Source of the DNA: a virus
Taxonomy: Duplodnaviria > Caudoviricetes
DNA: 64,000 bases
Reading direction: 5' to 3' (one strand)
Virus record (IMG/VR): IMGVR_UViG_3300044655_001017
This document shows, one piece after another, positions 11,177-64,000 of the stretch. Numbering within the stretch: position 1 is the first letter of the stretch; each line of letters opens with the position of its first letter. Both the position numbers and the translations under genes were made by a program. Below the pieces are notes generated by a model that searched no databases, was not told the DNA's origin, and was given only the letters and a program-made list of their open reading frames with translations.

Positions 11177-11729
11177 TGAAATTACAGATAAATTTAAAGT
11201 AATGCAAAGTAGTCCGCAAGGAATTAAACTTGCAGCACAAAACGGTACTGAAATAAATTTACCACCTGAACAGGCAAATTCAATTATTCCAGATCCACAA
11301 AATCCAAAATCTTCAGTATTAAATCTTAATACTCCTCAACAGGTACAACCTACGTTAGGACAACCTGAACAAGGCCAACCTGTACCTACCGGTACTGATC
11401 AATCAGCAGGTCAACCTGTACCTACAGGGGAACCTGCACAAGGCCAACCTGTACCTACAGGACAACAACCTCAATTACCACAAGTTGGATCAGAAGTTGA
11501 ACTTGCAGATAACGTAGGGTCAACTATGCAAACTGAAAAATTTAATAATACCGATCTAGTTGATTCTGGAAAGAATGCAGACATTAGCGGTGATAAAACT
11601 GACGATTATATTAACGACATAACTAATGACGACGATACATATACGTCAGGTAGAAGTAAGCGCACTAGTAATCCTATAAAAGAATCAGCTGAATTAATTG
11701 CTATGTTAACTATTGCAGGGTTAAGATGA
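11166..11729 (+). CDS. Hypothetical protein with QGQPVPTG repeats
   Basis: Three GQPVPTG units (about 11370-11462). Confidence 0.7.
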   Translation: MKINEITDKFKVMQSSPQGIKLAAQNGTEINLPPEQANSIIPDPQNPKSSVLNLNTPQQVQPTLGQPEQGQPVPTGTDQSAGQPVPTGEPAQGQPVPTGQQPQLPQVGSEVELADNVGSTMQTEKFNNTDLVDSGKNADISGDKTDDYINDITNDDDTYTSGRSKRTSNPIKESAELIAMLTIAGLR

Positions 11730-11935
11730 AAATAAACGAGCTTATTTCAAACTTTGAAATATTCATTACTAATGAAGAAAGAACGTTATTAAATAAATTA
11801 TCCGGTCCAGTTAGATTATCACATTTATCTGACCGAGAACAATGTTTAGCAGAGAACATGATCCGAAAAAGTCTATTAAAAAAAATTGGCTTTGAAACAC
11901 CATACGTACTTGTAAATGAAAAAACAACAGACTAG
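11726..11935 (+). CDS. Hypothetical phage protein
   Basis: ATGA-coupled ORF, MKINELIS. Confidence 0.7.
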   Translation: MKINELISNFEIFITNEERTLLNKLSGPVRLSHLSDREQCLAENMIRKSLLKKIGFETPYVLVNEKTTD

Positions 11936-12359
11936 AATAATTAAAGAGTTTGCTGGTTATTTTGACCAAGAATTACAAACTACTTTACCAATTTCTGTAT
12001 TACCAGACGGATCATTATTATATAAAGATTTTTTAGTTAAACAACTTGACAATACATTTTGGGGCGTGTATAATATACTGTCAAAAGATTTAATTAATGA
12101 ATACTTTCTTAAAAGTTGTGCGTTAATTGCTGCAAAGGAATATAACAATAGACATTATGAAAAATATCAGTCAGTTAAATTGTTAGATAGCAAATATGCG
12201 TCAGCTACTAATGATACTACTATATTTAACCACAATATTGATCTAGTAACTGACAGTGAAAAATATTATGTAATGTTAACACGATTGGAAGAAAGTACAG
12301 CACTATCTCAGTACTACAAGCAACTGATTTTAAGATTGTTTCGTCAGTCTTTTATATAA
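11916..12359 (+). CDS. Hypothetical phage protein
   Basis: ORF in operon. Confidence 0.7.
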   Translation: MKKQQTRIIKEFAGYFDQELQTTLPISVLPDGSLLYKDFLVKQLDNTFWGVYNILSKDLINEYFLKSCALIAAKEYNNRHYEKYQSVKLLDSKYASATNDTTIFNHNIDLVTDSEKYYVMLTRLEESTALSQYYKQLILRLFRQSFI

Positions 12360-48955: not shown

Positions 48956-49012
48956 GGGTTTAATACACGGGCATAGTGTCCAAATTACTCGCTTAAATAT
49001 ATAGGAGAAATA
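48956..49012 (+). repeat. Leader repeat copy 1 (upstream of porin)
   Basis: gggtttaatacacgggcatagtgtccaaattactcgcttaaatatataggagaaata; differs from 50593-50648 by one substitution and one indel. Confidence 0.95.
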
Positions 49013-49014
49013 TA

Positions 49015-50538
49015 TTGAAATTATCAAAACTAGCTATTGCTGTAACAGTTGCACTAACATCAAGTGTAACTACATCGGCATTTGCGCTAGATTTGTATGT
49101 TAACACAAAAACGAAACAAATTTTTGCAGAACCCGGTAAAGGTCGTCAGAAAATAGGTGCGTTTGAAAAAATTGAAGAATCTGCACATACAACAGTCAAC
49201 AATGAACATACAATCCAAGCGGTTGAAAGTGAAAAATCTGAAATCAAAAAAATTGAACAAGATTTAGAGCTTAAAAGCAATGAAATCAAAGCTCTAGAAG
49301 AACACATCGTTGCTAATAAAGAGGCTGCAGCTAAAAACGATGAAAAATGGTTTAACAAAATTAGTATGCGTGGTTATACTCAATTACGTTATAACCAGCC
49401 ACTTTCAGGCGATAGAGAAGCTAGAGGCACGAAAGATCCTGAAATGAGATCACCTGGTGATAGTGGTATTAAGGATAATGGTGGGTTTACATTCCGTCGA
49501 GTTCGTCTTGTTTTCTCAGGTGATATTAATGATTACGTATCACTTTATATCCAACCAGATTTTGCAAGTAATGTCAGCGATTCACAACAACATTTTGTGC
49601 AACTTCGTGACGCTTATGCCGATTTGGCCTTTGATAAAAAACATGAATACCGTATTCGTGCGGGTCAATCAAAAGTGCCTTTTGGTTGGGAAAACTTACA
49701 GTCATCGCAAAATCGTATAGCGTTAGATCGTAACGATGCGTTAAACAGTGCTGTACCAAGTGAACGTGATTTAGGTTTAATCGGATATTGGGCGCCATCT
49801 GAAGTCCAAAAATTATGGAAAGATTTAGCGAAGAAAAATTTAAAAACATCGGGTGACTACGGTATCTTAGGTTTCGGTGTTTACAATGGTCAAAGTATCA
49901 ATAAAGCCGAAACAAATGATGACCTTTATTTAGTGGCACACAGTACCTATCCAATTGAATTGAACTTCTTAGGCTCATTCTTCAAAGGTCAAGTATTAGA
50001 AGTTGGTGCAGATGCTATCAGTGGTAAATTTAATACACCTACTGCTTCAATTACACCATTTGCAGGTGTTGATGGATTTAACGGCAAAACATCATTTACA
50101 CCAACATCTTTAGGTGGTAAAAATGGTATTCGTGAAGAACGAGTTGGCGTTCATGCTGTATTATTCCCACAACCTTTTGGTTTACAAACTGAATGGAACT
50201 GGGGTGAAGGTGGAACTTTAGATACAACACAGAAAAAAATCACCAGCCAAGGTTTGAGCGGTGGTTATGTTCAAGCTATGTATAAAATAGATAAAGTTTT
50301 ACGCTCTGATGATTCAATCATTCCTTACGCAAAATGGCAAACTTATGATGGCGCCTATAAGGGAGCGAACAATGCGCCACGCGTTTCAGTTGAAGAAATT
50401 GAGGCTGGTGTAGAATGGCAAATGATGAAAGCTTTAGAATTAACCGTGGCTTATTCAACTATGGATAGAACAAACGTTACTAACTTAGGACAAGCTTCGG
50501 GCGATATGATTCGTACACAGTTGCAGTGGAACTACTAA
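49015..50538 (+). CDS. Outer-membrane porin, phosphate-selective OprO/OprP-like (TTG start)
   Basis: Signal peptide, periplasmic coiled coil, RGYTQLRY, FRRVRL, LRDAYADL, RAGQSKVPFGWENLQSS, ERDLG, C-terminal QLQWNY beta signal. Confidence 0.8.
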   Translation: MKLSKLAIAVTVALTSSVTTSAFALDLYVNTKTKQIFAEPGKGRQKIGAFEKIEESAHTTVNNEHTIQAVESEKSEIKKIEQDLELKSNEIKALEEHIVANKEAAAKNDEKWFNKISMRGYTQLRYNQPLSGDREARGTKDPEMRSPGDSGIKDNGGFTFRRVRLVFSGDINDYVSLYIQPDFASNVSDSQQHFVQLRDAYADLAFDKKHEYRIRAGQSKVPFGWENLQSSQNRIALDRNDALNSAVPSERDLGLIGYWAPSEVQKLWKDLAKKNLKTSGDYGILGFGVYNGQSINKAETNDDLYLVAHSTYPIELNFLGSFFKGQVLEVGADAISGKFNTPTASITPFAGVDGFNGKTSFTPTSLGGKNGIREERVGVHAVLFPQPFGLQTEWNWGEGGTLDTTQKKITSQGLSGGYVQAMYKIDKVLRSDDSIIPYAKWQTYDGAYKGANNAPRVSVEEIEAGVEWQMMKALELTVAYSTMDRTNVTNLGQASGDMIRTQLQWNY

Positions 50539-50650: not shown

Positions 50651-52618
50651 ATGAGCAAAATTATCGGAATCGACTTAGGTACAACAAATTCATGCGTAGC
50701 AATCTTAGAAAACGGAATTGCTAAAGTAATTGAAAACGCAGAAGGTACACGCACAACCCCCTCAATCATCGCATACACTAACGACGAAATCCTAGTTGGT
50801 GCAGCAGCAAAACGTCAATCAGTAACAAATCCAAAAAACACATTATATGCTGTTAAGCGTCTTATTGGTCGTAAATTTGATGAGTCAGCTGTACAGAAAG
50901 ATATTGACTTAATGCCATATAGCATTATTAAAGCTGAAAACGGTGATGCATGGGTAGAAGCAAATGGTGAGAAACTAGCTCCTCCACAAGTGTCTGCAGA
51001 AATCTTACGTAAGATGAAAAAAACTGCAGAGGACTATTTAGGTACAGAAGTAACTCAAGCAGTTATTACCGTACCTGCATACTTTAACGATTCACAACGT
51101 CAAGCAACTAAAGATGCAGGACGTATTGCTGGATTAGAAGTATTGCGTATTATTAATGAACCAACTGCTGCAGCATTAAGCTACGGTGTTGATAAGTCTG
51201 ACAAGAAAGACCGCAAAGTTGCTGTATTTGACTTAGGTGGTGGTACTTTTGATATTAGTATTATTGAGATCGCTAATGTTGACGGTGATAAACAAATTGA
51301 AGTATTATCTACAAACGGTGATACGTTCTTAGGTGGTGAAGATTTTGATCAACGTTTAATGGATCATTTGATTGATGAATTTAAGAAAGAGTCTGGCGTA
51401 GATCTTAAAACTGATACAATGGCGTTGCAACGTTTAAAAGAAGCTGCTGAAAAAGCTAAAATTGAATTGTCAAGTACTGCACAAACAAATGTTAACTTAC
51501 CATATGTTACTGCAGATGCTACAGGTCCAAAACACTTAAATGTAACAGTAACTCGCGCTAAGTTTGAATCATTAGTTGACGACTTAGTACAACGTTCAAT
51601 TGAACCATGTAAAATTGCAATTGCAGATGCTAAAGTACAATTGTCAGATATTGACGAAATTATTTTAGTAGGTGGTCAAACACGTATGCCTAAAGTACAA
51701 GAAGCAGTTGAAGCATTCTTTAGAAAAGCACCACGTAAAGACGTTAATCCAGATGAATCTGTTGCTGCAGGGGCTGCTATTCAAGGTGCAGTGTTAGCAG
51801 GTGACAAAACTGACGTATTGTTACTTGACGTTACTCCATTAAGTTTAGGTATTGAAACAATGGGCGGAGTGTTTACTAAGTTAATTACTAAAAATACAAC
51901 TATTCCAACTAAAGCAAGCCAAACATTTTCAACAGCAGAAGATAATCAACCTGCAGTTACTATTAAAGTAGGACAAGGTGAACGCGACTTGTATCGTTAC
52001 AATAAACAACTTGGCGAGTTTAACTTAGAAGGTATTGACTCAGCGCCGCGAGGTCAACCACAGATTGAAGTAACATTTGATATCGATGCCAATGGTATTA
52101 TGCATGTAAGTGCTAAAGATAAAAATACAGGCAAAGAGAACAAAATTACTATTAAATCTGATTCGGGATTAACTGACGATGAGATTCAACGTATGGTGCG
52201 TGAAGCTGAAGAAAACGCAGAATCAGATGCTAAGGCTAAAGAGTTAATTGAAGCGCGTAACAGTGCAGAAGCACAATCACATTCTTTGAAGAAAGACTAC
52301 GATGAAGTTAAAGACGAGTTAACTGAAGAAGAACGTACTGCGTTTGATGATGCATTAATTGCACTCGAAACTGCACGCGACGGTGAAGAAGTTGAAGCAA
52401 TTACTGAAGCAACTACTAAACTTTTTGAGGCAGCAAGTCCTGTTTTTACTAAAAAACAAGAAGTTGAACAAGCCAAAGCTGCTGCAGATGCAAAAGGCGA
52501 AGCAGACGTTACTGCAGAATTTACTGAAGTAACCTCTGAAGAAACTGTTGAAGACACTGTTGAAGACACTGTTGAAGAAACTGTTGAAGAAGCCACAGTA
52601 GCAGAACCAAAAGCATAA
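50651..52618 (+). CDS. dnaK: Hsp70 chaperone DnaK
   Basis: [45 protein letters not shown]. Confidence 0.98.
52541..52588 (+). repeat. 12-bp tandem repeat x4 in the dnaK 3' end (ETVE/DTVE)
   Basis: ga(a/c)actgttgaa x4. Confidence 0.9.
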
Positions 52619-52629
52619 CACTAAATTTG

Positions 52630-52668
52630 AACATAGCTGTTGACATTTGTTAACAGCTATGTTATTAT
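52630..52668 (+). promoter_or_regulatory. 15-bp inverted repeat overlapping the sigma70 promoter of hsp20 (also a likely dnaK terminator)
   Basis: aacatagctgttgac / gttaacagctatgtt; TTGACA(52640)-N17-TATTAT(52663). Confidence 0.7.
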
Positions 52669-52727
52669 ATACGCAAATAAACGCCGTAAGGGTTTAAATA
52701 GTCCTCGCTTACAATAAGGAGATTTTT

Positions 52728-53186
52728 ATGTCACATCCGCAACAACCAAGACTAACTATAAGTACTGCCGAATTAGCAGTGTTAAATAAAGCATTAATAG
52801 GGTTTGATACTTTATTTACAAACGTATTAGCAGCAACTGCGGCTAATAATTATCCACCACATAACATTGTAAAATACAACGATACTTACTACGAAATAGA
52901 AGTAGCAGTCGCTGGATTTACTAAACACGATATTAAAGTTGAAGTTAATCAAGATTTACTTGTTATTACAGGTAAAAAAAACGCAAATACAAAATACAAT
53001 CCCGAATTAAATGAAAGAAAAGAATTCCTTCATCGCGGATTAGCATTTAGAGATTTTGAACAAAACTTTACACTTGCAGAGTATATGGAAGTTAAAGATG
53101 CTAAGGTAGAAGATGGCATGCTTACTATTGGTATTGAACGATTAATGCCAGTTGCTTTACAACCCCGTCAAATTCAAATTAAATAA
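52728..53186 (+). CDS. hsp20: Small heat-shock protein Hsp20 (IbpA-like)
   Basis: IGFD, NYPPHNIVK, IEVAVAGF, FLHRGLAFRDF...F.LAEYMEVKDA..EDGMLTI. Confidence 0.95.
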   Translation: MSHPQQPRLTISTAELAVLNKALIGFDTLFTNVLAATAANNYPPHNIVKYNDTYYEIEVAVAGFTKHDIKVEVNQDLLVITGKKNANTKYNPELNERKEFLHRGLAFRDFEQNFTLAEYMEVKDAKVEDGMLTIGIERLMPVALQPRQIQIK

Positions 53187-53194
53187 GGACAAAA

Positions 53195-53503
53195 ATGTCA
53201 GAAAATACAGATATTGCAGTAGACGAAAAAGTACGAGTTCGTGTACCTGAGCCAAACCGTTGGAAAGTTATTTTAATTAACGACGACGTTACACCTGTTG
53301 ATTTTGTAGTAACATTATTAATGGATGTTTTTAAACATGATCCAAATTCTGCAGGTAATATTACTATGCAAATTCACGAAACTGGTTCTAGTATTGCAGG
53401 AGTATATAACTTTGAAATTGCAGAAATTAAAGCAGTAGAATCAACATCACTTGCAAGAGCAGCCGGGTACCCATTACAAATTAAAATGGAGGAAGATAAA
53501 TGA
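53195..53503 (+). CDS. clpS: ATP-dependent Clp protease adaptor ClpS
   Basis: WKVILINDDVTPVDFVV, QIHETGS, EIAEIK, YPLQIKME. Confidence 0.93.
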   Translation: MSENTDIAVDEKVRVRVPEPNRWKVILINDDVTPVDFVVTLLMDVFKHDPNSAGNITMQIHETGSSIAGVYNFEIAEIKAVESTSLARAAGYPLQIKMEEDK

Positions 53504-54027
53504 GTTTAAAAGAATTAACAGCAGAGGCACACAGACTAGCAGAAACCCAACCGTTTGTTAAAAAAATCTTTTCTGGTAATCTTACTAATGAAGAATATGC
53601 AATCTACTTGTATAATCAGTATACTGCATATGAAATTTTAGAAAGTCATGCACTAGTAATAGGGTTATTAAATGACTTACCAGGTATACAACGTGCAGCA
53701 GCGTTACTTGGTGATTTTAAAGAATTATGGCCAGATGATCAAGAAGTGCCACCACTTGCAACTGCTACAGTTTTATATAAAGAACATATTAACAATATTT
53801 CTAACAATCCAGATAAACTACTAGCACACATGTATGTTAGACACATGGGAGATCTATACGGTGGTCAAATGATTGCAAAAAGAATTCCAGGATCCGGATC
53901 CTGTTATAAATTTGATAATGCTGATGCGCTTAAAACTGCCATTCGTGCTAAATTGGACGATTCATTGGCAGACGAGGCATTAGTCTGTTTTAAATTTGCC
54001 ACTCAGTTATTTGAAGAGTTAGCATGA
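53500..54027 (+). CDS. hemO: Heme oxygenase (HO1/HemO-type)
   Basis: LKELTAEAHRLAE (proximal His), LLAHMYVRHMGDLYGGQMI, EALVCF. Confidence 0.92.
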   Translation: MSLKELTAEAHRLAETQPFVKKIFSGNLTNEEYAIYLYNQYTAYEILESHALVIGLLNDLPGIQRAAALLGDFKELWPDDQEVPPLATATVLYKEHINNISNNPDKLLAHMYVRHMGDLYGGQMIAKRIPGSGSCYKFDNADALKTAIRAKLDDSLADEALVCFKFATQLFEELA

Positions 54028-54701
54028 CAGTACTTTGGAATCAATTAATTGATCTTCAACTCATGCTTGAAGATCATTTTAACGAAACTGGAACAATTGT
54101 TGTTGAATCAAATCACGATCGATTTTCTCATAAAGGTTGGATACATAGAGTATGGGAAAGCAAGTTATATCGCAGAGCGCATATAGATATTATTGACGAG
54201 CGTGATACTCGTGGATTATGGATGTTACACTGCTGTATATTTCCACATACTAATAATCCTGCACCAATATTTGGATTTGATATAGTAGCAGGTCGTAATA
54301 AAATTACAGGTTGTTTCCATGATTATAGCCCTGCAGGCGATATTAATCATCCAATGATTAAATGGTTTGCGAACAACGTTGATGAGTTACAATGGAATAA
54401 ATTACGAACATTACCTGATTGGGCTGTTCGTATTTTTTCCCCGTCTATGATAGCTGCAAGCAACGTTCAATCTAGCGAAGAAATAGCACAAATTATTAAT
54501 ACAGTAACATGCACTAGTAAACACTACTTATCATGCGTTGCAAACACAAATAACACTGTTAAAAGCACTGTAGAAGAACAAAACTACTACGCACAAAATC
54601 AAAAGTTAAATCCTCACACTCCTAAAGTTATGGCTGCATTAGGATTAAACGAAGAAGAAGTTAACATCTTTATTCATCAATGCTTATTTCCTGAAATTTA
54701 A
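54024..54701 (+). CDS. Ferredoxin-dependent bilin reductase (PcyA/PcyX-like)
   Basis: YRRAHI, LWMLHCCIFP (His), PIFGFDIVAG (Asp), FHDYSP, LPDWAVRIFS, QNYYAQNQKLNPHT; coupled to heme oxygenase. Confidence 0.88.
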   Translation: MTVLWNQLIDLQLMLEDHFNETGTIVVESNHDRFSHKGWIHRVWESKLYRRAHIDIIDERDTRGLWMLHCCIFPHTNNPAPIFGFDIVAGRNKITGCFHDYSPAGDINHPMIKWFANNVDELQWNKLRTLPDWAVRIFSPSMIAASNVQSSEEIAQIINTVTCTSKHYLSCVANTNNTVKSTVEEQNYYAQNQKLNPHTPKVMAALGLNEEEVNIFIHQCLFPEI

Positions 54702-54708
54702 ATGTAAA

Positions 54709-54738
54709 ATAGTGTATTTATACAGATAAATACACTAT
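54709..54738. promoter_or_regulatory. 12-bp palindrome made of two back-to-back TAAATA motifs upstream of rimK
   Basis: atagtgtattta-tacaga-taaatacactat. Confidence 0.6.
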
Positions 54739-55618
54739 GAAACATTCAGTTATAATTCTCACAAAACAAACTACTATTGACTATGAAACTTCTAAACTGT
54801 TGGCTAATTTTATAGCTAACGGCATTGAAGTGTCAGTCCGTCAATTTAACAACTTTGATATCGTTATAAATCAACCAATTAGATACGATGGGGAAGATTT
54901 CCCCATGCCAGATTTAGTATTAGTACGATTGGGTGCTGGTATTACGTCTGTCGAATTAGCTGTAATTAGATATTTTGAATTACACAGTATTCCATGCGTT
55001 AATTCTAGCAATAGCATTAATATCGTACAAAACAAATTCCACACTAGTCAAATACTGTCACATGCTAACATAGCTGTTCCTACTACAATGCTAGTACACT
55101 TTCCAATTACTAATAACTTAATCGCAACACAGATAGGATTCCCTTGCGTAATTAAAGTGTTAGTTGGTAGTTTTGGTGAAGGTGTGTACTTATGCCATTC
55201 TGAAGACGAATATAAAAAACTAATTGAATTTCTTAAAAACTTAGATAATGATAAAAAATTATTAGTGCAAGAATACATTAATGATCGTCCTGGTGAAGAT
55301 TTACGAGTATTTGTAGTTGGTGATAAAGTGTTAGGTGCAATGAAGCGCACTGCACCGCCTGACGATTTTCGAGCAAATATTACAATAGGTGGCACTGGCG
55401 AGTCATTCCCTGTATCTAAAGAAATAGAAGACATATCACTAGCTACTGCAAAAGCATTAGGATTAGAAATTGCCGGTATTGATCTGTTATTTGATAAAAG
55501 AGGTTTTAGAGTTTGCGAAGCCAATTCAAATCCAGGATTTAACGGTTTTGACCATTATTGCAATACTGACATAGCGAGCGACATAGTTAATTACATTGTT
55601 AAAAGATTATCAGAGTAA
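54737..55618 (+). CDS. rimK: RimK-family ATP-grasp ligase
   Basis: NKFHT, PCVIKVLVGSFGEGV, LVQEYI, DLRVFVVG, FRANITIGG, GIDLL, CEANSNPGF. Confidence 0.9.
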   Translation: MKHSVIILTKQTTIDYETSKLLANFIANGIEVSVRQFNNFDIVINQPIRYDGEDFPMPDLVLVRLGAGITSVELAVIRYFELHSIPCVNSSNSINIVQNKFHTSQILSHANIAVPTTMLVHFPITNNLIATQIGFPCVIKVLVGSFGEGVYLCHSEDEYKKLIEFLKNLDNDKKLLVQEYINDRPGEDLRVFVVGDKVLGAMKRTAPPDDFRANITIGGTGESFPVSKEIEDISLATAKALGLEIAGIDLLFDKRGFRVCEANSNPGFNGFDHYCNTDIASDIVNYIVKRLSE

Positions 55619-55705: not shown

Positions 55706-56215
55706 ATGCCATTAAACATTAACAATTATAAAATTGACGGTTTTCAAAAAGTTTGCGATATAACACTAAAATTAGATAATCATAATCATTGGTATTATGA
55801 AAATATAAATTATCAAGTTATGTATGATACTCATCGATCATGGGTATACTTTATTGTAGAAGATAATGAAATTATAAAAGTTGGGGAAACTGGTAATCCA
55901 TTAGGTATTCAAAAAGTTGAATTTTGGTGGGACCAACAACCGTTGTCCGGTAGCAAATGTCGAATAGGACGATACATTAACGGAGATGGTACTGATGAAT
56001 CTATTAGAGAGCAGTTGTTTGAATCGATGCATAAAAAACTTAACAGCTACTCTTTTTGGGCTAAAAAATGTAACTACATATCATCACCCTTTACAATTTG
56101 GGGTAACCCTTACACTACTAATGCAACTATACACAAAGATTTAGAAAAACAGTATTTAGATTTTATTAAAACACATTCAGGCACATTACCTAGATTAAAC
56201 AAAAGTCGATCTTAA
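55706..56215 (+). CDS. GIY-YIG-like putative nuclease
   Basis: WVYFIV...IIKVGET...R...E pattern, weak. Confidence 0.45.
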   Translation: MPLNINNYKIDGFQKVCDITLKLDNHNHWYYENINYQVMYDTHRSWVYFIVEDNEIIKVGETGNPLGIQKVEFWWDQQPLSGSKCRIGRYINGDGTDESIREQLFESMHKKLNSYSFWAKKCNYISSPFTIWGNPYTTNATIHKDLEKQYLDFIKTHSGTLPRLNKSRS

Positions 56216-56251
56216 ATTATAACATTAACCTTAAATCACACAAAACATAAT

Positions 56252-56914
56252 ATGACAAAATTAAACATCAGAGTAAATAAATTAGCTAAATTAAACATCG
56301 GTCCACGTCCAATTTGCCCAGTATGCAATGTTAAAGAGTGTACTATTGGTAACAAGAAAAAAGACGGAACTTATAGGTTTCAATCAATGTGTACACCATG
56401 CAAACATAAACATCTTGAACAGAAGAATGGTGTGAAATATGCAGTGCGGTGTGCTCAAAATGCAGGTTGTAATTCAATAAAAGAAAACAATGATCGTATT
56501 GCAAAAGAAAACGGGTTTTCATCACATAAATCATACACAGCTCATTTAAATCTACAAATTGCATTAGATAATGGATTTAAAACATATAGAGCATATAGAG
56601 ATCATTTAAACTTACAACTTGCATTAGATAATGGTTTTAGTAATTATACCGATTACGCAAATTCAAAACATGTATGGAGACAACATAGAATGGATTATTG
56701 CGAAAATATAGATGGAAGATTAGGTGAACCGTGTACTAGTACTATTTTATTATCTGGCCAACTAGAGGTTGATCATATTTTTCCTAAAGGTAGAGCTAAA
56801 CGTTTAGGTTGGACTGATGAGCAAATTAATCATCCTAGCAATTTACAAACATTATGTAGAAATTGCCATTCTTATAAAACAATCACAAATAGAGACAGAT
56901 CTATTAATCAATAG
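56252..56914 (+). mobile_element. HNH endonuclease with Zn ribbon and 20-aa internal repeats
   Basis: CPVC/CTPC; NGF...HLNLQ.ALD repeats; LEVDHIF...NLQTLCRNCHSYKT. Confidence 0.85.
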
Positions 56915-58168: not shown

Positions 58169-58271
58169 TTTGTATCCTTAATCATATTCTATATTTATCA
58201 TTATTTCTGCTGGCTTTATTTTTACTCTTTTTGTAGGTAAATACGTTAGTAACTTTATCAAGGAGAGAGAA

Positions 58272-58745
58272 GTGAACAAAATCTTAGTATTATTACTAGT
58301 ATCATCATCAGCATTTTCTGCTGAACTCCAACACTCATTTAATAGTCCATCATTTAGCGGAATTGGGTATAGCAATCACATTCTAACTATCCAACAGTTA
58401 GAACAACAAGGTGTTGAAAAAAACAAATCACTTGCAGATTCATTAGCAGCTAAAGCAGCATCAGCAGCAGCTAATACGCCAGCGGCTAAATTCTTAGCAA
58501 ACTTAGAATCAAGGATATATTCACAACTAGCAAAACAACTTACTGATAGCATGTTTGCCGAAGGGTCTACATGTACTATCCCAGGTGCAACTTGTGGAAA
58601 TATTCCAGACTTAGGTGGAAACACGGTTACATGGGGATTAGGATCAGGTACAGATAATGGACTAATTATTATCAATATTACAAGTAATAGTAATCCAAAT
58701 CAAACAACAACAATGAAAGTACCGGCCGGTACTTTCTATTTTTGA
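58272..58745 (+). CDS. csgF: Curli assembly protein CsgF-like (GTG start)
   Basis: Signal peptide then ELQHSFNSPSFSG (cf. the CsgF FxFxNPxFGG motif), FLANLESRIYSQLAKQL. Confidence 0.75.
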   Translation: MNKILVLLLVSSSAFSAELQHSFNSPSFSGIGYSNHILTIQQLEQQGVEKNKSLADSLAAKAASAAANTPAAKFLANLESRIYSQLAKQLTDSMFAEGSTCTIPGATCGNIPDLGGNTVTWGLGSGTDNGLIIINITSNSNPNQTTTMKVPAGTFYF

Positions 58746-58752
58746 GGTAACT

Positions 58753-59607
58753 ATGAAAAAATTACTATTATTAGCAATTATTCTACTACTACAAGGATGT
58801 GCAGCAAGTAGTTCAATTGAAAAACTTATAACAGGTGAACAGTTTGACGATCCAATCGTTGACAATACACCGTATTTAAAAAAAGAAGAAAATTATTTAG
58901 CTCCGCCGCAAGGTGGACCTATTCCAATTGCAGTATACGGTTTTACGGATAAAACTGGACAACGCAAATCAATACCAAACATTGCTAGTTTAAGTTCTGC
59001 AATTACTCAAGGTGCTGAAAACTATTTAATCAAGTCATTAAAAGAAGTCGGTGATAGTCGTTGGTTTGTAGTACTAGAACGCGTTGGCTTAGACAACCTA
59101 GTTAAAGAACGTCAAATGATTCGCCAAACACGCGAACAGTTCCAAGGCAAAGATGCTACTTCATTACCGGCTATGACATTTGCTGGAATTATTGCAGAAG
59201 GTGCAGTTGTTGGTTATGATTCAAATACAATCACAGGCGGAGCAGGTGTAAGGATATTTGGCATAGGTGGCGAAACACAATATCAAAGCGATACTGTTAC
59301 AGTAAGTTTAAGAATTGTATCAGTAACATCTGGTGAAATTCTAACATCAGTTGTAGTAACTAAAACTGTACTAAGTTATATGGATAAAGTCGGTGTATTA
59401 AGAATGTTCTCTTCAGATACTAAAGCATTAGAAACAGAAGTGGGCGGAAGTATAAATGAAAGTATTAACAAAGCGACTAACAAAGCTATTCAAGCCGCTG
59501 TGGTCGAAACTATTAAAGAAGGTGCTAAGAAAGGTCACTGGGCTTTTAAAGAAGCGCCACAGGAGCTAAAAAATGAAACAACTAATACTACTACTACTAA
59601 TAAGTAG
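58753..59607 (+). CDS. csgG: Curli secretion channel CsgG-like lipoprotein
   Basis: Lipobox LQGC; IAVYGFTDKTGQRK, WFVVLERVGLDNLVKERQMIR, GAVVGYDSN..TGGAG, DTVTVSLRIVSVTSGEIL. Confidence 0.92.
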   Translation: MKKLLLLAIILLLQGCAASSSIEKLITGEQFDDPIVDNTPYLKKEENYLAPPQGGPIPIAVYGFTDKTGQRKSIPNIASLSSAITQGAENYLIKSLKEVGDSRWFVVLERVGLDNLVKERQMIRQTREQFQGKDATSLPAMTFAGIIAEGAVVGYDSNTITGGAGVRIFGIGGETQYQSDTVTVSLRIVSVTSGEILTSVVVTKTVLSYMDKVGVLRMFSSDTKALETEVGGSINESINKATNKAIQAAVVETIKEGAKKGHWAFKEAPQELKNETTNTTTTNK

Positions 59608-60340
59608 TCCAGTGTTTGCAGCAAGTACAGGAGTAAACAATGTATACATTGAACAAGTTGGAAATGCAAATACAATCGTTATTGATCAAATTGGCGGAGG
59701 AAATAATGTCGGTGGCACAGCACTTAATGTTCCTTTACTATACAGTTCTAGTAACACTATTATATCGTTTGTACCAGCTACTGCAAGCTCATCAAATTAT
59801 GCGACTATTACGGGTAATTCTAACCAAGTAACCTTGTCGCATACTGGAGATACTAACTGGGCACAATATAATATTAGCGGAGCAAATAATATATATTCTA
59901 GTATCATTAAAGGTAATCAAAATCAAACGTTACTTAACATTGGACTTGGTACTCCAGTAAATGCTAATGTTGTTACTGAAACAATTACTGGTGATTTAAA
60001 CTATGTTATACAAAGTTTAACTAAAGGTAGCATACATAGTACAATTGATATTAATGGCAGTAACAATGAAGTTACAACACGATTAAATAGCACTAACGGT
60101 GTAGTAGATACAACAGTAAGTGGTGGGTTTAACAGTTTCATTAACGAACAAGACGATGGAGGTATTGGGCATCATCTAGTACAAGATTTTACTGGGAGTT
60201 ATAACTCTGTTGTAACACAGCAGCAAGGTACTAACGATTCTATGATAGATATTAGTACAATTGGAGATCATAATACAATTACTGTAAGGTCAACTAATTC
60301 AAGCAGTATTGTAAATTCAAATACAGCCGTTTCGAGGTAA
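59573..60340 (+). CDS. Curlin-like (CsgA/CsgB-type) secreted repeat protein
   Basis: Signal peptide; repeated N-x-x-x-x-x-Q-x-G-x-x-N units (NNVYIEQVGNAN, NSVVTQQQGTND). Confidence 0.75.
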   Translation: MKQLILLLLISSPVFAASTGVNNVYIEQVGNANTIVIDQIGGGNNVGGTALNVPLLYSSSNTIISFVPATASSSNYATITGNSNQVTLSHTGDTNWAQYNISGANNIYSSIIKGNQNQTLLNIGLGTPVNANVVTETITGDLNYVIQSLTKGSIHSTIDINGSNNEVTTRLNSTNGVVDTTVSGGFNSFINEQDDGGIGHHLVQDFTGSYNSVVTQQQGTNDSMIDISTIGDHNTITVRSTNSSSIVNSNTAVSR

Positions 60341-60341
60341 T

Positions 60342-61427
60342 ATGTGGTTCTTAGTTTTTTTATTATTAGTTGTTAATAATGCTTATGCAGGAATTGGTGC
60401 AGTTTCAGACGCTAAAGGCACTGCATGCAGCATTGAACGTAACAAAGAAAAACTTGCAGGTGATAAAGGCGCATCTATAGAAAGTATGGATGCGTACATT
60501 ACCGGCGGGTGTGTTAGTAACATTCTATTTAAAGATGAAACAAAAGTTAAAATTACAGAGAATAGTAGATTAGTAATAGATGACTTTGTATACGATCCAA
60601 AACAATCAGATGCAGGTAAACTTGCATTAAAAGTTGGATTAGGTACTGTTAGATATGCAAGTGGGCAAATAGCAAAAGCTAATCCACAGCAAGTAGGTAT
60701 TCAAACTCCCACTGCTACAATTGCAGTACGTGGTACTGACTTTACTATGACAGTAGATGAAACTGGCCAATCTCTTATTGTACTACTTCCAAGTTGCAAA
60801 GATGAGAAAGATGTTAAGCAATATGAACTACAAGAGAATATTTGTAAAGTAGGTAAAATTGTAGTTACAAATGATGCAGGGGAAGTTACTTTAGATCAAG
60901 CGTTTCATGCAACTTATGTTAGTAGTAGAACTGCAATGCCAACTGCTCCGGAAGTTATTAGTTTGGTAGAATCTAAAATCAATAATAACTTAATCATTTC
61001 TGCGCCAAAAGAAATTGTTAACGCAATTAAACAAGCAGCTAGAACAAAGAAAGATGAAGAACAAGAAGATTTAGAAAAAGAAGCAACTAGACGATTAGCA
61101 AATCAAGTAGCTAAAACTCAAGAAACTATTGCTGCTAGAATAGAACAGATTGCAGAAACTATACAATCTATTGCACCTTGCGACCCGACATCGCATGTAT
61201 GTGTAATGTGGGAACAACCTAATGCAGACGGTACACAAAAAGGTAAAGGTACTGCATATCGTATAACCCCAGATGAACACTATGCTGAAATTAAAACACA
61301 AGGGTATACTTCTAATACTGCTATATCTATTATTCAAAATGATACTACTGCATCTACAATGATAGGCGACAGCAGTGGCGGTAATACAATAAGTATTACA
61401 CAAACTACCGGAGTGTTAAGACGATGA
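60342..61427 (+). CDS. Secreted FecR-domain protein
   Basis: Signal peptide; KVKITENSRLVID, LKVGLGTVRYASG, IQTPTATIAVRGTDF. Confidence 0.85.
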   Translation: MWFLVFLLLVVNNAYAGIGAVSDAKGTACSIERNKEKLAGDKGASIESMDAYITGGCVSNILFKDETKVKITENSRLVIDDFVYDPKQSDAGKLALKVGLGTVRYASGQIAKANPQQVGIQTPTATIAVRGTDFTMTVDETGQSLIVLLPSCKDEKDVKQYELQENICKVGKIVVTNDAGEVTLDQAFHATYVSSRTAMPTAPEVISLVESKINNNLIISAPKEIVNAIKQAARTKKDEEQEDLEKEATRRLANQVAKTQETIAARIEQIAETIQSIAPCDPTSHVCVMWEQPNADGTQKGKGTAYRITPDEHYAEIKTQGYTSNTAISIIQNDTTASTMIGDSSGGNTISITQTTGVLRR

Positions 61428-62581
61428 GAATTTTATTTTTCATATTGTTGTTATGGTATTCAAATGTAGATGCAGTTCCTAACTATGTACCACTTAGACC
61501 ATTAATGTTAGGATATATTCCATCAAGTATGAATAGTCCAGGTGGTGAGTTCTTTAGTAATGCGTTTGACGGTAATCCCGGAACTAAGTATCTTAACTTT
61601 GATAAACTTAGTGCAGGTGTTATGCTTAAACTGTCACAAGGTAAAGTTATTAGTCAAGTACAATTTACTACAGCAAATGATTCTCCAGAACGAGATCCTG
61701 CTAGTTTTAGTTTATTTGGAAGTAATGATACATCAGGAGGTTGGACGTTAATAACTTCTCAACTTATTGCATTACCTAATAATAGACTTGCAGTTAGTCC
61801 AGTATACCCTATTAACAATACAGAAGCATACGTGTATTATAATATAACGTTTCCAATTGTTAAAGACGCAGGTGCTGCTAACTCTATGCAAATTGCAGAA
61901 ATAACATTCTTGTACGATCAAAATGATCCTACTACTAGCATTGACTTAGGAAGTACGTTACCATGGACTACGTTTCCAAGTGTATATTGCTGCGGTGGCA
62001 GTGGATCTTCATTTAATGCCGCTCCTGCTAATACTGCAAAAGTAACGGCTTTTACATCTAGATCAACTACTGACAATCAAGTATATATAGATCAGTTAGG
62101 AAACAATAACAAGATTACAATTGATCAAAAAGGTACTAACAACAATTATGTAAATTACAGCAGTAATGGCTCGTCTAACACTACTACTATTAATCAAACT
62201 GCAGCCAATAACTTACAAGTAAACTTTATTGACTTAACAGTAAATGGCAATTCTAATTTGCTTAGTATAGATCAAGATACATATACTGCCGGGTTTAGTA
62301 AAGGTGCTTTTATAAATATAACTGATAATAACAACAGTTTAATTTTACAACAAAAGGGTAGTGGAAATTATTATGCTAATATTGAATTATCTGGTGGTAA
62401 TAAACATGTTGATATATTACAACAAGGTGCAGCAAATCATATGACTGATATTACCTTATCAGGACAACCAGTAGACTTGAGTCTACAACAGAGTGGTGCT
62501 ACTCAACAGTATTACTCAATAAACTTTAATTGTGCTACAGTAGGAGGATGCGCACCAATTCAAGTACAACAAGGGCAATAA
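61424..62581 (+). CDS. Secreted discoidin (F5/8 type C)-like plus curlin-repeat hybrid protein
   Basis: Signal peptide; NAFDGNPGTKY...TANDSPERDPASFSLFGSND...WTLI; C-terminal NQVYIDQLGNNN-type curlin repeats. Confidence 0.75.
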   Translation: MRILFFILLLWYSNVDAVPNYVPLRPLMLGYIPSSMNSPGGEFFSNAFDGNPGTKYLNFDKLSAGVMLKLSQGKVISQVQFTTANDSPERDPASFSLFGSNDTSGGWTLITSQLIALPNNRLAVSPVYPINNTEAYVYYNITFPIVKDAGAANSMQIAEITFLYDQNDPTTSIDLGSTLPWTTFPSVYCCGGSGSSFNAAPANTAKVTAFTSRSTTDNQVYIDQLGNNNKITIDQKGTNNNYVNYSSNGSSNTTTINQTAANNLQVNFIDLTVNGNSNLLSIDQDTYTAGFSKGAFINITDNNNSLILQQKGSGNYYANIELSGGNKHVDILQQGAANHMTDITLSGQPVDLSLQQSGATQQYYSINFNCATVGGCAPIQVQQGQ

Positions 62582-62629
62582 CTTTTAGTTAAGGCTATTA
62601 GGAAATTAAAATGTAAATAAGGAATTAAT

Positions 62630-62947
62630 ATGGAAACTTCAAGAGGCGCACTTATTGAAAAGATAATGTTTGCACTAATACCAATCTTATTCTCGTGTAT
62701 AGTGTATTTAATTAACTCATTGTCCAGTGCTAATGAACGCATTACTATGTTAGAGGCAAAAAATCAAACTATAGTTACTGCTGATGCATTACACGAAATG
62801 AATAACAGATTAGATCTAGCTCGTGAAAAACTACGTTAAGATTTATTAACCTTGCAAACTGAAAACATTGAACGTTCTGCAGACAATAAAAGTTCAGTTA
62901 AAGTTTTAGAATGGCGTATTTCTGCATTAGAGAGTCATCAAAAATAA
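62630..62947 (+). pseudogene. Membrane/coiled-coil protein interrupted by an in-frame TAA at 62837-62839
   Basis: Same frame continues 35 codons (DLLTLQTENIERSADNKSSVKVLEWRISALESHQK) to TAA 62945-62947, right before the next ATG. Confidence 0.55.
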
Positions 62948-62948
62948 T

Positions 62949-63734
62949 ATGAAAAAACTTAAAACTTATAAATCAATCTTTATCTCGGATATACACTTAG
63001 GTACTCGAGATTGTAAAGCAGAACAACTTAACGACTTCCTTAAACATAACACTTGCGAAACACTATACTTAGTAGGTGACATTATAGATGGATGGAAAGT
63101 TCAGCAAAATAAACTAAGATGGAAACAAAGCCATACTGATATCATACGTAGATTTTTAAAAATTTCAAGACAACACACTCAAGTTATCTACATAGCAGGT
63201 AATCATGATGAATTTTTAAGACCTATGCTACGATTAGGAATATCATTTGGAAAGATATCTATTGTTAATCAGTGTGATCATATTGGCGTAGATGGAAAGC
63301 GTTACTTAGTTACACACGGCGACTTGTTTGACGGTATAACTAGATTAGCACCATGGTTAGGTTTCTTAGGAGATAAAGGCTACGACTTTATCTTAGGACT
63401 TAATAATCATTTTAATTGGGTGCGTCACAAGTTAGGGTTTGGATACTGGAGTTTAAGTAAATACCTAAAACATAAAGTTAAGAAGGCTGTAGATTTTATC
63501 TTTCAGTTTGAGATTAACTTAACTGACTACTGTAAAAAAAGAAACTATGACGGTGTAATATGTGGACATACACATACACCACTTATTAAAGAGATTAACA
63601 GCATTATACTAATGAATGATGGTGACTGGGTTGAATCTATGTCAGCATTAGTTGAACACCACACAGGTGAATGGGAAATTATATACTGGACGGAGGTAAA
63701 AAGTAATGTGGACATTGATAATGCTAGTAGTTAA
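62949..63734 (+). CDS. Metallophosphoesterase, PlcP / LpxH2-like (UDP-2,3-diacylglucosamine hydrolase family)
   Basis: ISDIHLG, LVGDIIDGW, AGNHDE, THGDLFD, CGHTH, NDGDWVES. Confidence 0.85.
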   Translation: MKKLKTYKSIFISDIHLGTRDCKAEQLNDFLKHNTCETLYLVGDIIDGWKVQQNKLRWKQSHTDIIRRFLKISRQHTQVIYIAGNHDEFLRPMLRLGISFGKISIVNQCDHIGVDGKRYLVTHGDLFDGITRLAPWLGFLGDKGYDFILGLNNHFNWVRHKLGFGYWSLSKYLKHKVKKAVDFIFQFEINLTDYCKKRNYDGVICGHTHTPLIKEINSIILMNDGDWVESMSALVEHHTGEWEIIYWTEVKSNVDIDNASS

Positions 63735-63876
63735 TATACACGATCCAACAGATGTACCCGGAAGAATGAAATTGTTTTTTCCTACAGAACAAGAGTGTGT
63801 GCATGTAGCATCATCACTAACATATACAGTAAAATTTGATTGGTTTAAGGTGACAGCAGAATGTATAAAATCCTAA
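63706..63876 (+). pseudogene. Small protein with an apparent 1-nt frameshift near 63766
   Basis: MWTLIMLVVNIHDPTDVPGR continues sensibly only in another frame (EIVFPTEQECVHVASSLTYTVKFDWFKVTAECIKS) to TAA 63874-63876. Confidence 0.45.
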
Positions 63877-64000
63877 TAGTTTCCGACAACTTGTTTGATC
63901 AAGTTAACGGCGTAGTGACTACGTTCACTAATATAAAAAAACAAGCAGAATTAAACGGATATGAAATAGAAATTATAAACCCTAGTCATTTCCGTTATAT
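63861..64000 (+). CDS. GT4-family glycosyltransferase, 5' part (Agt-like)
   Basis: Read manually: MYKILIVSDNLFDQVNGVVTTFTNIKKQAELNGYEIEIINP; the QVNGVVTT motif is typical of GT4 lipid glycosyltransferases. Confidence 0.8.
   Translation, partial: MYKILIVSDNLFDQVNGVVTTFTNIKKQAELNGYEIEIINPSHFRY

Follow-up and report, generated by a model that had tools for sequence, protein, structure and literature searches.

The curli cassette has already been published for ocean phages (2020-2022), in which a viral type VIII secretion module was described for the Pelagibacter phage HTVC008M (KC465899), the Methylophilales phage Melnitz (MZ577097), and uncultured pelagimyophages and HTVC023P-type podophages (PMC7029224, PMC9004378, PMC9599517). 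The module is expressed in marine metatranscriptomes and was found at 65 of 65 GOV2.0 stations (PMC9599517). Its suggested roles include "sibling capture" (PMC7029224) and superinfection defence (PMC9599517), such that the aggregation, host trapping and shielding proposed in a first-pass annotation of the present DNA match hypotheses already in print. The cluster described here, located in a stretch of 64,000 nucleotides (the window), is this published viral module and no new kind of system, as its gene order is that annotated in HTVC008M and Melnitz. The preferred overall explanation, with an assigned probability of about 0.6, is that a roughly 355-kb lake phage carries the curli-type (type VIII) secretion module known from marine pelagiphages and methylophages, and fibre export late in infection is its best reading. 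The features of the locus are as follows.

58238..58243, plus strand: TAAATA, motif resembling a T4-type late promoter, 29 nt before csgF begins (sequence)
58260..58265, plus strand: AAGGAG ribosome-binding site, 6 nt ahead of the GTG start (sequence)
58272..58745, plus strand: csgF-like gene, 157 aa, GTG start, signal peptide (Pfam CsgF, E 1.2e-5)
58753..59607, plus strand: csgG lipoprotein gene, 284 aa (Pfam CsgG, E 2.5e-48)
59573..60340, plus strand: curlin-repeat subunit gene, 255 aa, signal peptide, two-stranded beta-solenoid (profile, AF2)
60342..61427, plus strand: secreted FecR-domain protein gene, 361 aa (Pfam FecR, E 2.1e-9)
61424..62581, plus strand: lectin-headed curlin gene, 385 aa, signal peptide (Pfam Curlin_rpt, Foldseek)
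62630..62839, plus strand: 69-aa membrane/coiled-coil ORF, first insert gene, with its own TAAATA at 62614-62619
62949..63734, plus strand: metallophosphoesterase gene, 261 aa, second insert gene (Pfam Metallophos, E 2e-12)
63861..64000, plus strand: 5' part of a glycosyltransferase-like gene, cut off by the window end (translation)

The five cluster genes (58272-62581) are packed as an operon: 7 nt lie between the first two, the second and third overlap by 35 nt, a single nucleotide separates the third from the fourth, and the last two share 4 nt (ATGA). Their identities as CsgF-like, CsgG, curlin-repeat, FecR-domain and discoidin-curlin genes, called in the first-pass annotation from the letters, were borne out by Pfam/NCBIfam, profile and fold searches, and inspection by eye agrees with its signal peptides, since all five proteins exhibit signal-peptide-like N-termini. 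The same five-gene order is present in every sufficiently long locus among 32 fetched from IMG/VR, with variable flanking genes, and in further metagenome contigs. Values of dN/dS between 0.04 and 0.42 across the five genes indicate purifying selection. Genes for tail fibre and virion structural proteins, RNR and DnaK confirm the phage context, and the fifth cluster protein was found on a contig of 355,155 bp.

The module shares with its pelagiphage and methylophage counterparts the order csgF-csgG-curlin-FecR-curlin, the adenylate cyclase downstream (here via relatives), the absence of CsgE-, CsgC- and CsgD-like genes from the cluster, and TATAAATA or TAAATA upstream. The known carriers, however, are marine myophages of 140 kb and small podophages; their proteins are just 24-48% identical to those of the lake phage, whose cluster lacks the upstream histidine kinase. 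In HTVC008M the second curlin bears PA14 instead of the discoidin/CBM32 head, and near-identical relatives of the lake phage carry the 69-aa ORF, metallophosphoesterase and glycosyltransferase genes inserted ahead of the cyclase. Likenesses to the csgBAC-csgDEFG system of E. coli and Salmonella comprise a full-length CsgG alignment (E 1e-47), a CsgF docking motif in register and curlin-repeat subunits built of N-x-hydrophobic-x-hydrophobic-x-Q-x-G half-repeats. Unlike that system, the phage uses a single operon without CsgE, CsgC or CsgD, its subunits are longer, with some 7-9 mostly degenerate repeats, and a lectin-fused subunit and a FecR-domain gene lie inside the operon.

The motif ahead of csgF had been reported at 58239-58244; the motif stands, yet its coordinates were one base off. 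Of 19 non-redundant relatives, 18 carry TAAATA 11-43 nt ahead of csgF, where the background rate is 4%; this exceeds chance and supports the late-promoter call. The window holds 49 plus-strand copies, of which 21 fall in the zone 8-60 nt before plus-strand gene starts, which covers 5.9% of the sequence. Transcription of the operon may start from this late-promoter-like motif, which would place expression late in infection, and the host Sec system would carry all five products across the inner membrane.

The CsgG lipoprotein, which would form the outer-membrane channel, also matches NCBIfam CsgG (E 9.6e-53, under the equivalog cut-off), and the LQGC lipobox of the earlier annotation is present as LLQG|C. 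Its alignment with E. coli CsgG (E 9.5e-48) extends from end to end and takes in the barrel-hairpin region. Within the phage clade the constriction loop TGQRKSIPNIASLSSAITQG is conserved, whereas the E. coli triad Y51/N55/F56 is replaced here by I/S/L, with F56 changed to L throughout the clade; the channel properties may therefore differ.

Together with the lack of a CsgE gate in the cluster, this altered constriction would suit a repurposing of CsgG, alone or together with CsgF, into a gated pore of the outer membrane for lysis timing or envelope depolarisation, the curlins being accessory or vestigial. Such a role was proposed for Melnitz, whose infected cells showed no clumping by cytograms or TEM, yet the premise of missing csgA/B genes (PMC9004378) fails, as both curlin genes are present and pass the sequence and fold tests. 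Purifying selection acts on the curlin genes in every relative, a plain pore needs neither CsgF nor lectin heads, and the genes flanking the cluster in the window are not lysis genes. The outer membrane, where CsgG resides, moreover carries no proton gradient. A pore acting on its own is accordingly considered quite unlikely.

The CsgF-like protein scores 25.9 bits against Pfam CsgF, barely above the 25.8-bit cut-off. The best PDB match of its family profile is E. coli CsgF (6l7a_J), but with an E of 0.31; the alignment spans the N-terminal motif. The mature N-terminus is AELQHSFNSPSFSG, in which F7, P10, F12 and G14 are, by that same match, in register with E. coli CsgF and invariant in relatives; in precursor numbering, E18, F23, P26, F28 and G30 are invariant among 21 relatives. 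Judging from these residues, the motif that docks CsgF in CsgG is kept, and CsgF would be situated at the cell surface with this conserved segment docked in the CsgG barrel.

Both curlin-like genes pass curlin tests of sequence and fold. The 255-aa protein alone gave no match in a Pfam search, whereas a profile of its 16-sequence family (A1) matched the curlin 8c50, Pontibacter korlensis CsgA (PMC10192328), in the PDB (E 6.7e-7). Its AF2 model (pLDDT 78.8), which contains a 25-residue insert of low confidence, likewise has 8c50_A as its best structural match by alignment (Z 18.8), compared to Z 11.8 for the E. coli CsgA fibril. This structural match spans 193 residues at 23% identity, and both proteins exhibit a long multi-repeat, two-sheet solenoid; twist or curvature differ, since the rmsd is 8.7 Å, and in the 255-aa curlin the centrosymmetric type is confined to the first repeat pair.

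The 385-aa protein exceeds the Pfam Curlin_rpt cut-off (22.5 against 20.7 bits) and matches NCBIfam CsgB/CsgA weakly. Its AF2 model (pLDDT 75.5) comprises a CBM32/discoidin domain (residues ~20-165), a disordered linker with CCGG (186-212) and a curlin solenoid (218-383). The Pfam F5/8 type C match of the head falls under the cut-off, and Foldseek retrieves CBM32/discoidin domains at E 1e-9 to 1e-6. Among relatives the head is of F5/8 type C, PA14, absent, or without a Pfam match, while the solenoid is retained, a pattern expected of an adhesive display subunit. In the engineered CsgA fusion display of Van Gerven et al. 2014, a folded passenger joined by a flexible linker to a curlin solenoid is reportedly exported via CsgG. 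The phage protein has the same layout, and its export is predicted, yet the fusion is natural and its head is N-terminal, 150 residues long and disulfide-free.

A canonical opening half-repeat pair, NxVYI[ED]QxGNxNxIxIDQxG, is common to both curlins: NNVYIEQVG and NTIVIDQIG at residues 22-41 of the 255-aa protein, NQVYIDQLG and NKITIDQKG at 218-237 of the 385-aa protein. The strict curlin motif occurs 2 and 3 times, whereas shuffled sequences average 0.03-0.04. After the first pair most repeats are degenerate, and the non-repeat termini (IVNxxTAxxR, and a Cys-x5-Cys end in the fusion) are conserved. A beta-solenoid fold by itself is no proof of polymerisation, as many beta-solenoids are monomeric and capped ones do not polymerise (PMC10192328). 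The degenerate repeats, and termini that could cap the solenoid, would be compatible with export by CsgG/F of two soluble or surface-bound monomers, for example as a lectin coat on host or debris. Both proteins nevertheless keep the exposed canonical pair at the solenoid start, fibre-forming CsgA is the best structural and profile match, and CsgF, known for surface fibre nucleation, is retained with its docking motif; monomeric adhesins are thus regarded as rather doubtful. Under the preferred reading of fibre export, the two curlins would be exported unfolded and then stacked into beta-solenoid fibres, and co-polymerisation fits because both open with the same half-repeat pair. The 255-aa subunit would be the plain building block, and the 385-aa subunit would bear a sugar-binding head on a flexible linker, so that the fibres would be sticky for glycans. 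Aggregation or superinfection shielding may follow from such display.

The FecR-domain protein comprises a signal peptide, the FecR domain (52-146), conserved Cys pairs, a charged helical linker and an extra C-terminal domain for which searches gave no match. Its mean column identity is 67% among 18 relatives, and over 6000 metagenomic homologues were retrieved. Bacterial chromosomal homologues lie near CHASE2 cyclases and not CsgG, as in loci L062, L063 and L071. Such neighbours, a gene for a secreted FecR-domain protein next to one for a membrane protein whose CHASE2 domain is periplasmic, are reported in the Burkholderia BiofilmReg operon (PMC5192318) and in S. meliloti, with SMc02177 and the CHASE2 cyclase CyaD1 (PMC5498481). 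In contrast to these pairs, the phage has the curlin gene, and here three more genes, in between, and the additional C-terminal domain. It is thus less likely that the FecR-domain protein belongs to the fibre machinery than that it works with the sensor cyclase, most likely as an envelope sensor pair.

The absence of CsgE, the FecR domain and the cyclase of relatives would also suit an ungated CsgG pore that admits nutrients or cofactors to the periplasm, where FecR and cyclase sense them, an idea raised previously (PMC7029224, PMC9599517). The same phage encodes an OprO/P-type porin, so altering the permeability of the envelope lies within its means. An uptake channel nonetheless leaves two conserved curlin subunits, lectin heads and CsgF unexplained, and the parts of iron-citrate FecR that have anti-sigma and transmembrane character are missing from the phage FecR-domain protein, which renders this explanation highly improbable.

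The five genes had been taken as the complete unit; the five stand, but in relatives the unit also includes the CHASE2 adenylate/guanylate cyclase, which most relatives, and likewise the near-identical ones, carry downstream of the module. It is observed in relatives only, since the window stops before its position, which they place about 0.9 kb beyond the window end. In near-identical relatives the three-gene insert separates the curlin genes from the cyclase, and the 682-aa cyclase gene (CHASE2 Pfam E 5e-38 in L008, L005 and L004) directly follows the glycosyltransferase-like gene (334 aa) with an ATGA overlap. The window tail (63846-64000) matches one relative, L076, at 94.8%. The 69-aa ORF is confined to the closest relatives and is truncated in a deletion variant (L006).

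The region between 58272 and 62581 carries a curli-like gene cluster that belongs to an already known system, the viral curli module. Five open reading frames follow one another on the plus strand, and the identities proposed for them in the first-pass annotation are all correct, as judged by Pfam, NCBIfam, profile and fold matches; the five-gene cluster stands as originally observed.

58272-58745, plus strand, CsgF-like protein (157 residues)
58753-59607, plus strand, CsgG (284 residues)
59573-60340, plus strand, first curlin (255 residues)
60342-61427, plus strand, FecR-domain protein (361 residues)
61424-62581, plus strand, second, lectin-headed curlin (385 residues)

The genes are packed as an operon: the first two are 7 nt apart, the second and third overlap by 35 nt, the third and fourth are 1 nt apart, and the fourth and fifth overlap at an ATGA. 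AAGGAG at 58260-58265 precedes the GTG start of the csgF-like gene. All five products had been credited with signal peptides, and short basic, hydrophobic and small-residue N-termini can indeed be read by eye in each of them. The order csgF-csgG-curlin-FecR-(second curlin) is that of the viral type VIII secretion system (PMC9599517), and the same genes are annotated as curli in the Pelagibacter phage HTVC008M and the Methylophilales phage Melnitz. The gammaproteobacterial csgBAC-csgDEFG system includes the CsgE gate, the CsgC chaperone and the CsgD regulator, whereas none of these gave a Pfam or NCBIfam match among the nine window proteins that make up the cluster and its surroundings. The curli branch appears to be closer than the Caulobacter HfaA/HfaB/HfaD system, judged from the curlin and CsgF matches.

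The second gene matches the Pfam model of the CsgG family over almost the whole of the model (PF03783, E 2.5e-48, model positions 8-208 of 210) and the NCBIfam CsgG model at E 9.6e-53, and a phmmer comparison with E. coli CsgG structures extends over residues 1-268, from the lipobox through the C-terminal helix (E 9.5e-48). The lipobox reported earlier is borne out in the translation as LLQG followed by cysteine (MKKLLLLAIILLLQG, then C, read by eye). The cysteine is kept in all 23 non-redundant relatives inspected by eye, in which the residues at -3 to -1 are mostly LQG, with LSG, LAG and LTG also occurring. Absence of the barrel-forming hairpins had been named as a finding that would speak against a secretion channel; segments of both transmembrane beta-hairpins of the 36-stranded barrel are present, and the region aligns to E. 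coli CsgG with no gap in either sequence. The E. coli-type constriction triad Y51/N55/F56 is absent, the aligned residues being I, S and L (S, Q and L in the pelagiphage CsgG), such that the constriction would be hydrophobic but smaller than that of E. coli. Since the constriction loop, TGQRKSxPNIASLSSAVTQG, is nearly invariant across the 23 phage relatives, the I/S/L combination looks like a selected variant and not decay. Longer CsgG proteins of 386-414 residues occur in three relative loci (L025, 6001-7158; L035, 5989-7164; L039, 7790-9034), where they bear a C-terminal extension of at least 100 residues that is absent from the 284-residue protein of the window.

The CsgF assignment is borderline by score and strong by motif. 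The Pfam match (PF10614, E 1.2e-5) reaches 25.9 bits against a cut-off of 25.8, and a single-sequence search of the PDB with the CsgF-like protein found no CsgF; a search with the family profile placed E. coli CsgF (6l7a_J) at the top, yet with an E value of 0.31. In that alignment the mature N-terminus, AELQHSFNSPSFSG, lies in register with the GTMTFQFRNPNFGG of E. coli CsgF, and in the family motif AELQfsFNsPaFsG the residues F, P, F and G fall at the same distance from the mature N-terminus as in the E. coli protein. In 21 relatives the motif residues E, F, P, F and G do not vary. In the structures 6L7A and 6SI7, this N-terminal segment of CsgF sits within the CsgG barrel. The last csgF codons, just before csgG, also contain a perfect 9-bp GC-containing hairpin (58715-58736, plus strand; GAAAGTACC GGCC GGTACTTTC, then TATTTTT), which may be a partial terminator that sets the CsgF:CsgG ratio or a mere by-product of the conserved peptide VPAGTFYF.

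Two of the five genes code for proteins of the curlin type. The fifth matches Curlin_rpt (PF07012) at 22.5 bits against a cut-off of 20.7, and the NCBIfam models for CsgB (E 3.5e-5) and CsgA (E 1.1e-4) under their equivalog cut-offs. The third gene on its own has no Pfam match; a profile built from 16 relatives of its product matches the CsgA of Pontibacter korlensis (8c50) at E 6.7e-7, and GxxN recurs in it at a spacing of 11 or 22 residues, invariant among the 16 relatives. For both proteins AlphaFold2 predicts a strand-turn-strand beta-solenoid with strands of 8-9 residues about every 11 residues (pLDDT 78.8 for the 255-residue and 75.5 for the 385-residue protein). Foldseek against the PDB returned nothing at E <= 0.001 for the 255-residue model and unrelated beta-helices only, and a wide structural search with VIA-align placed 8c50 first (Z 18.8, 193 residues, rmsd 8.7 Å), ahead of the best unrelated solenoid (Z 15.0) and the E. 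coli CsgA fibril (Z 11.8). The two solenoids open with almost the same pair of half-repeats, NNVYIEQVG-NA-NTIVIDQIG in the 255-residue curlin and NQVYIDQLG-NN-NKITIDQKG in the lectin-headed one. Both pairs can be set beside the established curlin half-repeat pattern, N-x-hydrophobic-x-hydrophobic-x-Q-x-G (PMC10192328), and canonical half-repeat motifs are found far above the shuffled expectation. Taken together, the profile matches and models indicate that both genes code for real curlins, with fibre assembly as a prediction. A pore-only role is a rival reading. In the study of Melnitz from 2022, CsgG and CsgF were modelled, csgA/B were held to be missing, no clumping was seen and a pore for the timing of lysis was proposed (PMC9004378); the cluster described here includes two curlins in addition to the channel genes.

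The fifth protein combines its curlin part with a lectin-like head, and its product (gene on the plus strand, 61424-62581) can be divided as follows.

Residues ~20-165, CBM32/discoidin sandwich (Foldseek matches galactose- and GalNAc-binding CBM32 modules at E 1e-9 to 1e-6)
Residues 186-212, disordered linker (AlphaFold2)
Residues 218-383, curlin solenoid (AlphaFold2)

The F5/8 type C match in this protein lies under the Pfam threshold. Among the relatives the length of the protein ranges from 153 to 628 residues while the C-terminal solenoid is kept, and the head of the second curlin is modular. By Pfam, F5/8 type C heads are found in the close kin of the window and in the relative locus L031, and PA14 heads in locus L012 and HTVC008M; the second curlin is headless in two loci (L009, L016) and bears heads with no Pfam assignment in three others (L020, L025, L028). 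Both discoidin and PA14 belong to the adhesion modules that bind glycans, which argues for the second curlin as an adhesive, surface-exposed product. A rival reading is that the products act as monomeric adhesins, in which case the solenoids would not polymerize. The repeats beyond the first pair are degenerate in both curlins; the canonical opening pair shared by the two speaks for fibres.

The module is conserved as a unit. A protein-pattern scan of IMG/VR retrieved 32 loci with a CsgG identity of 59-100%, and every locus long enough has the same five-gene order, with differing flanks. Among 50,697 phage records megablast found nothing that matches the cluster, so that the similarity to these lies at the protein level only. 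Pairwise dN/dS ranges from 0.04 to 0.42 for all five genes. Synonymous divergence is uneven along the operon: in the comparison with the relative L007, dS is 0 for the fourth and fifth genes, which are identical, and 0.13-0.36 for the first three, and compared with L005 the csgG gene has a dS of 0.13 and the third gene 0.01. The mosaic divergence from L007 suggests recent recombination inside the cluster, and the pattern as a whole points to phage variants that co-occur and often recombine. The fifth protein has 643 metagenomic homologues, and the FecR-like protein more than 6000, the best 120 of which all share at least 60% identity with it. A csgF-csgG-FecR-cyclase module of 39-55% identity was also seen on contigs (L043-L049) in metagenome-assembled genomes from widely differing phyla (Luteolibacter, Flavobacteriaceae, Legionellales, Pirellulales and Rhodobacteraceae); they probably come from phages and were wrongly binned with bacteria, a true cellular copy being the alternative.

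The FecR domain of the fourth protein (Pfam E 2.1e-9) starts at residue 52, and the sole hydrophobic segment is a signal-like peptide at the N-terminus, MWFLVFLLLVVNNAYA. The architecture of E. coli FecR, with a cytoplasmic anti-sigma part, a transmembrane helix and a periplasmic FecR domain, is absent, and the protein would thus be a secreted FecR-domain protein rather than a FecR regulator. Its C-terminus was also considered as a curlin-like repeat or cap, a candidate rejected at a profile-profile probability of 1.5% and with no motif matches; in the ESM Atlas the C-terminal half found viral hypothetical clusters only, below 0.9. Several of its bacterial chromosomal homologues (29-41% identity) adjoin CHASE2 cyclases, and tblastn detected no CsgG or CsgF near these homologues. 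Comparable pairings are known from Burkholderia operons, in which a secreted FecR-domain protein accompanies a CHASE2 sensor (PMC5192318); S. meliloti possesses the FecR-domain Clr target SMc02177 as well as the CHASE2 cyclase CyaD1 (PMC5498481). On the basis of these neighbours and pairings, and of the missing regulator parts, the FecR-domain protein is placed with the cyclase as a putative envelope sensor pair. A complex prediction for the protein and the CHASE2 domain scored 0.00, which is no evidence either way.

HTVC008M and Melnitz, like most relatives, have a gene for a CHASE2 adenylate/guanylate cyclase after the second curlin, and none is found inside the window. Loss of the cyclase in the lineage of the window was considered and rejected in view of three near-identical relatives (L008, L005, L004), which share 95-100% identity with the window in the second to fifth proteins (98-100% in the fourth and fifth) and whose records contain a CHASE2 match at E about 1e-38 just past the fetched loci. 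Their order is second curlin, a 69-residue ORF, a metallophosphoesterase, a 334-residue glycosyltransferase-like gene and a 682-residue cyclase, the last two joined by an ATGA overlap (seen in the relative L076). In the window the insert between the second curlin and the expected cyclase occupies 62630-64000 (plus strand), and its 69-residue ORF codes for a membrane protein. Since the tail of the window (63846-64000) matches this stretch at 94.8%, a cyclase would start some 0.86 kb beyond the end of the window. The relative L006 presents a clean deletion of the insert, in which 34 codons from the start of the 69-residue gene and 60 from the end of the glycosyltransferase gene remain, with the cyclase directly after them. 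The unit of the module thus appears to be larger than five genes.

A TAAATA motif had been noted ahead of the cluster; it is present, one base from the position first assigned to it, at 58238-58243. Of 19 non-redundant relatives, 18 have the same hexamer 11-43 nt ahead of csgF (background chance 4%), the upstream sequences being otherwise unalignable, and in HTVC008M the complete T4 late consensus, TATAAATA, occupies this position. Within the window, 21 of the 49 plus-strand copies of TAAATA fall 8-60 nt upstream of plus-strand genes, among them tail-fibre and ribonucleotide reductase genes, in a zone that makes up 5.9% of the sequence; for the control word TATTTA the count is 6 of 47. The full TATAAATA was rejected as the motif of the window, as it is not enriched (6 seen, 12.8 expected), and it is the shorter TAAATA that tracks gene starts. 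Scans for sigma-70 promoters and intrinsic terminators remained at chance level. The conservation of TAAATA before csgF and its association with gene starts make late, T4-type transcription of the cluster a reasonable inference.

Previous work has described the module in stages. A pelagimyophage 'curli operon' was reported in 2020 together with a proposed 'sibling capture', and freshwater fonsimyophages were found to be devoid of it (PMC7029224). In 2022, CsgA/B, FecR and the cyclase were identified in modules of podo- and myophages; transcripts were detected in metatranscriptomes from the sea, and the genes were present at each of the 65 GOV2.0 stations (PMC9599517). The text of that paper makes no mention of discoidin, lectin, carbohydrate-binding, jumbo or late promoter, and 'freshwater' occurs in its reference list only; among the papers searched, none combines pmoC phages with curli. 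What the present analysis adds is the swapping of lectin heads, the seed repeat common to both curlins, a variant constriction that is conserved, the conservation of TAAATA ahead of csgF and the insert of three genes in front of the cyclase.

Among phage accessory cassettes whose function has yet to be tested, the viral curli module ranks with the most widespread, and the copy in the window indicates that it is also present in giant lake phages. The reading with the best support, at a probability of roughly 0.6, is that fibres are exported late in infection. It is favoured by the two genuine curlins that share a canonical seed repeat, by the conserved CsgF docking motif and by the interchangeable lectin heads. 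An uptake channel, in which CsgG would serve for import, is a rival that relates to earlier discussion, where uptake was considered along with superinfection defence and aggregation (PMC9599517); the same curlins and heads argue for fibre-making. If fibres are made, the stickiness of infected cells would change shortly before lysis, with consequences for aggregation, for attachment to particles and for the transmission of phages in the plankton. A broader scheme can be drawn only tentatively and is rather unlikely to hold in full. The second curlin would be a natural display subunit, and lineages would swap, by recombination, the sugar-binding heads (discoidin/CBM32, PA14, others or none) that it displays on the amyloid fibres of infected cells, thereby tuning adhesion to sister cells, particles or competitor receptors, while the FecR-CHASE2 pair would report the state of the envelope or fibre as cAMP. 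As the module is joined in this lineage to the phosphoesterase-glycosyltransferase pair, fibre export and envelope lipid remodelling may form one co-regulated late programme.

The surroundings of the cluster are those of a phage. The window carries tail-fibre and virion proteins, a ribonucleotide reductase and DnaK, and its own fifth protein is contained in a contig of 355,155 bp. Upstream of the module (50651-55618, plus strand) lie genes for DnaK, Hsp20, ClpS, haem oxygenase, a ferredoxin-dependent bilin reductase and a RimK-type ATP-grasp enzyme. The order from DnaK to bilin reductase is seen again before csgF in the distant relatives L039-L041, and the contexts of two metagenomic homologues are again phage, with DnaK, Hsp20, ClpS, haem oxygenase and bilin reductase upstream as in the window and a CHASE2 cyclase downstream. 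Farther upstream, a full-length homologue of the phosphate-selective Porin_O_P family (49015-50538, plus strand; 507 residues, Pfam E 9.6e-41) has TAAATA ahead of it at 48994, and together with CsgG it brings to two the phage-encoded outer-membrane channels within one window. An HNH endonuclease (Pfam E 6.6e-8) and a 169-residue ORF with no family are located just upstream of the region (55706-56914, plus strand), and in L006 an ORF with no assigned family (11437-12042) comes after the cyclase. Should these prove to be mobile nuclease genes, they could have a part in the rearrangements around the module.
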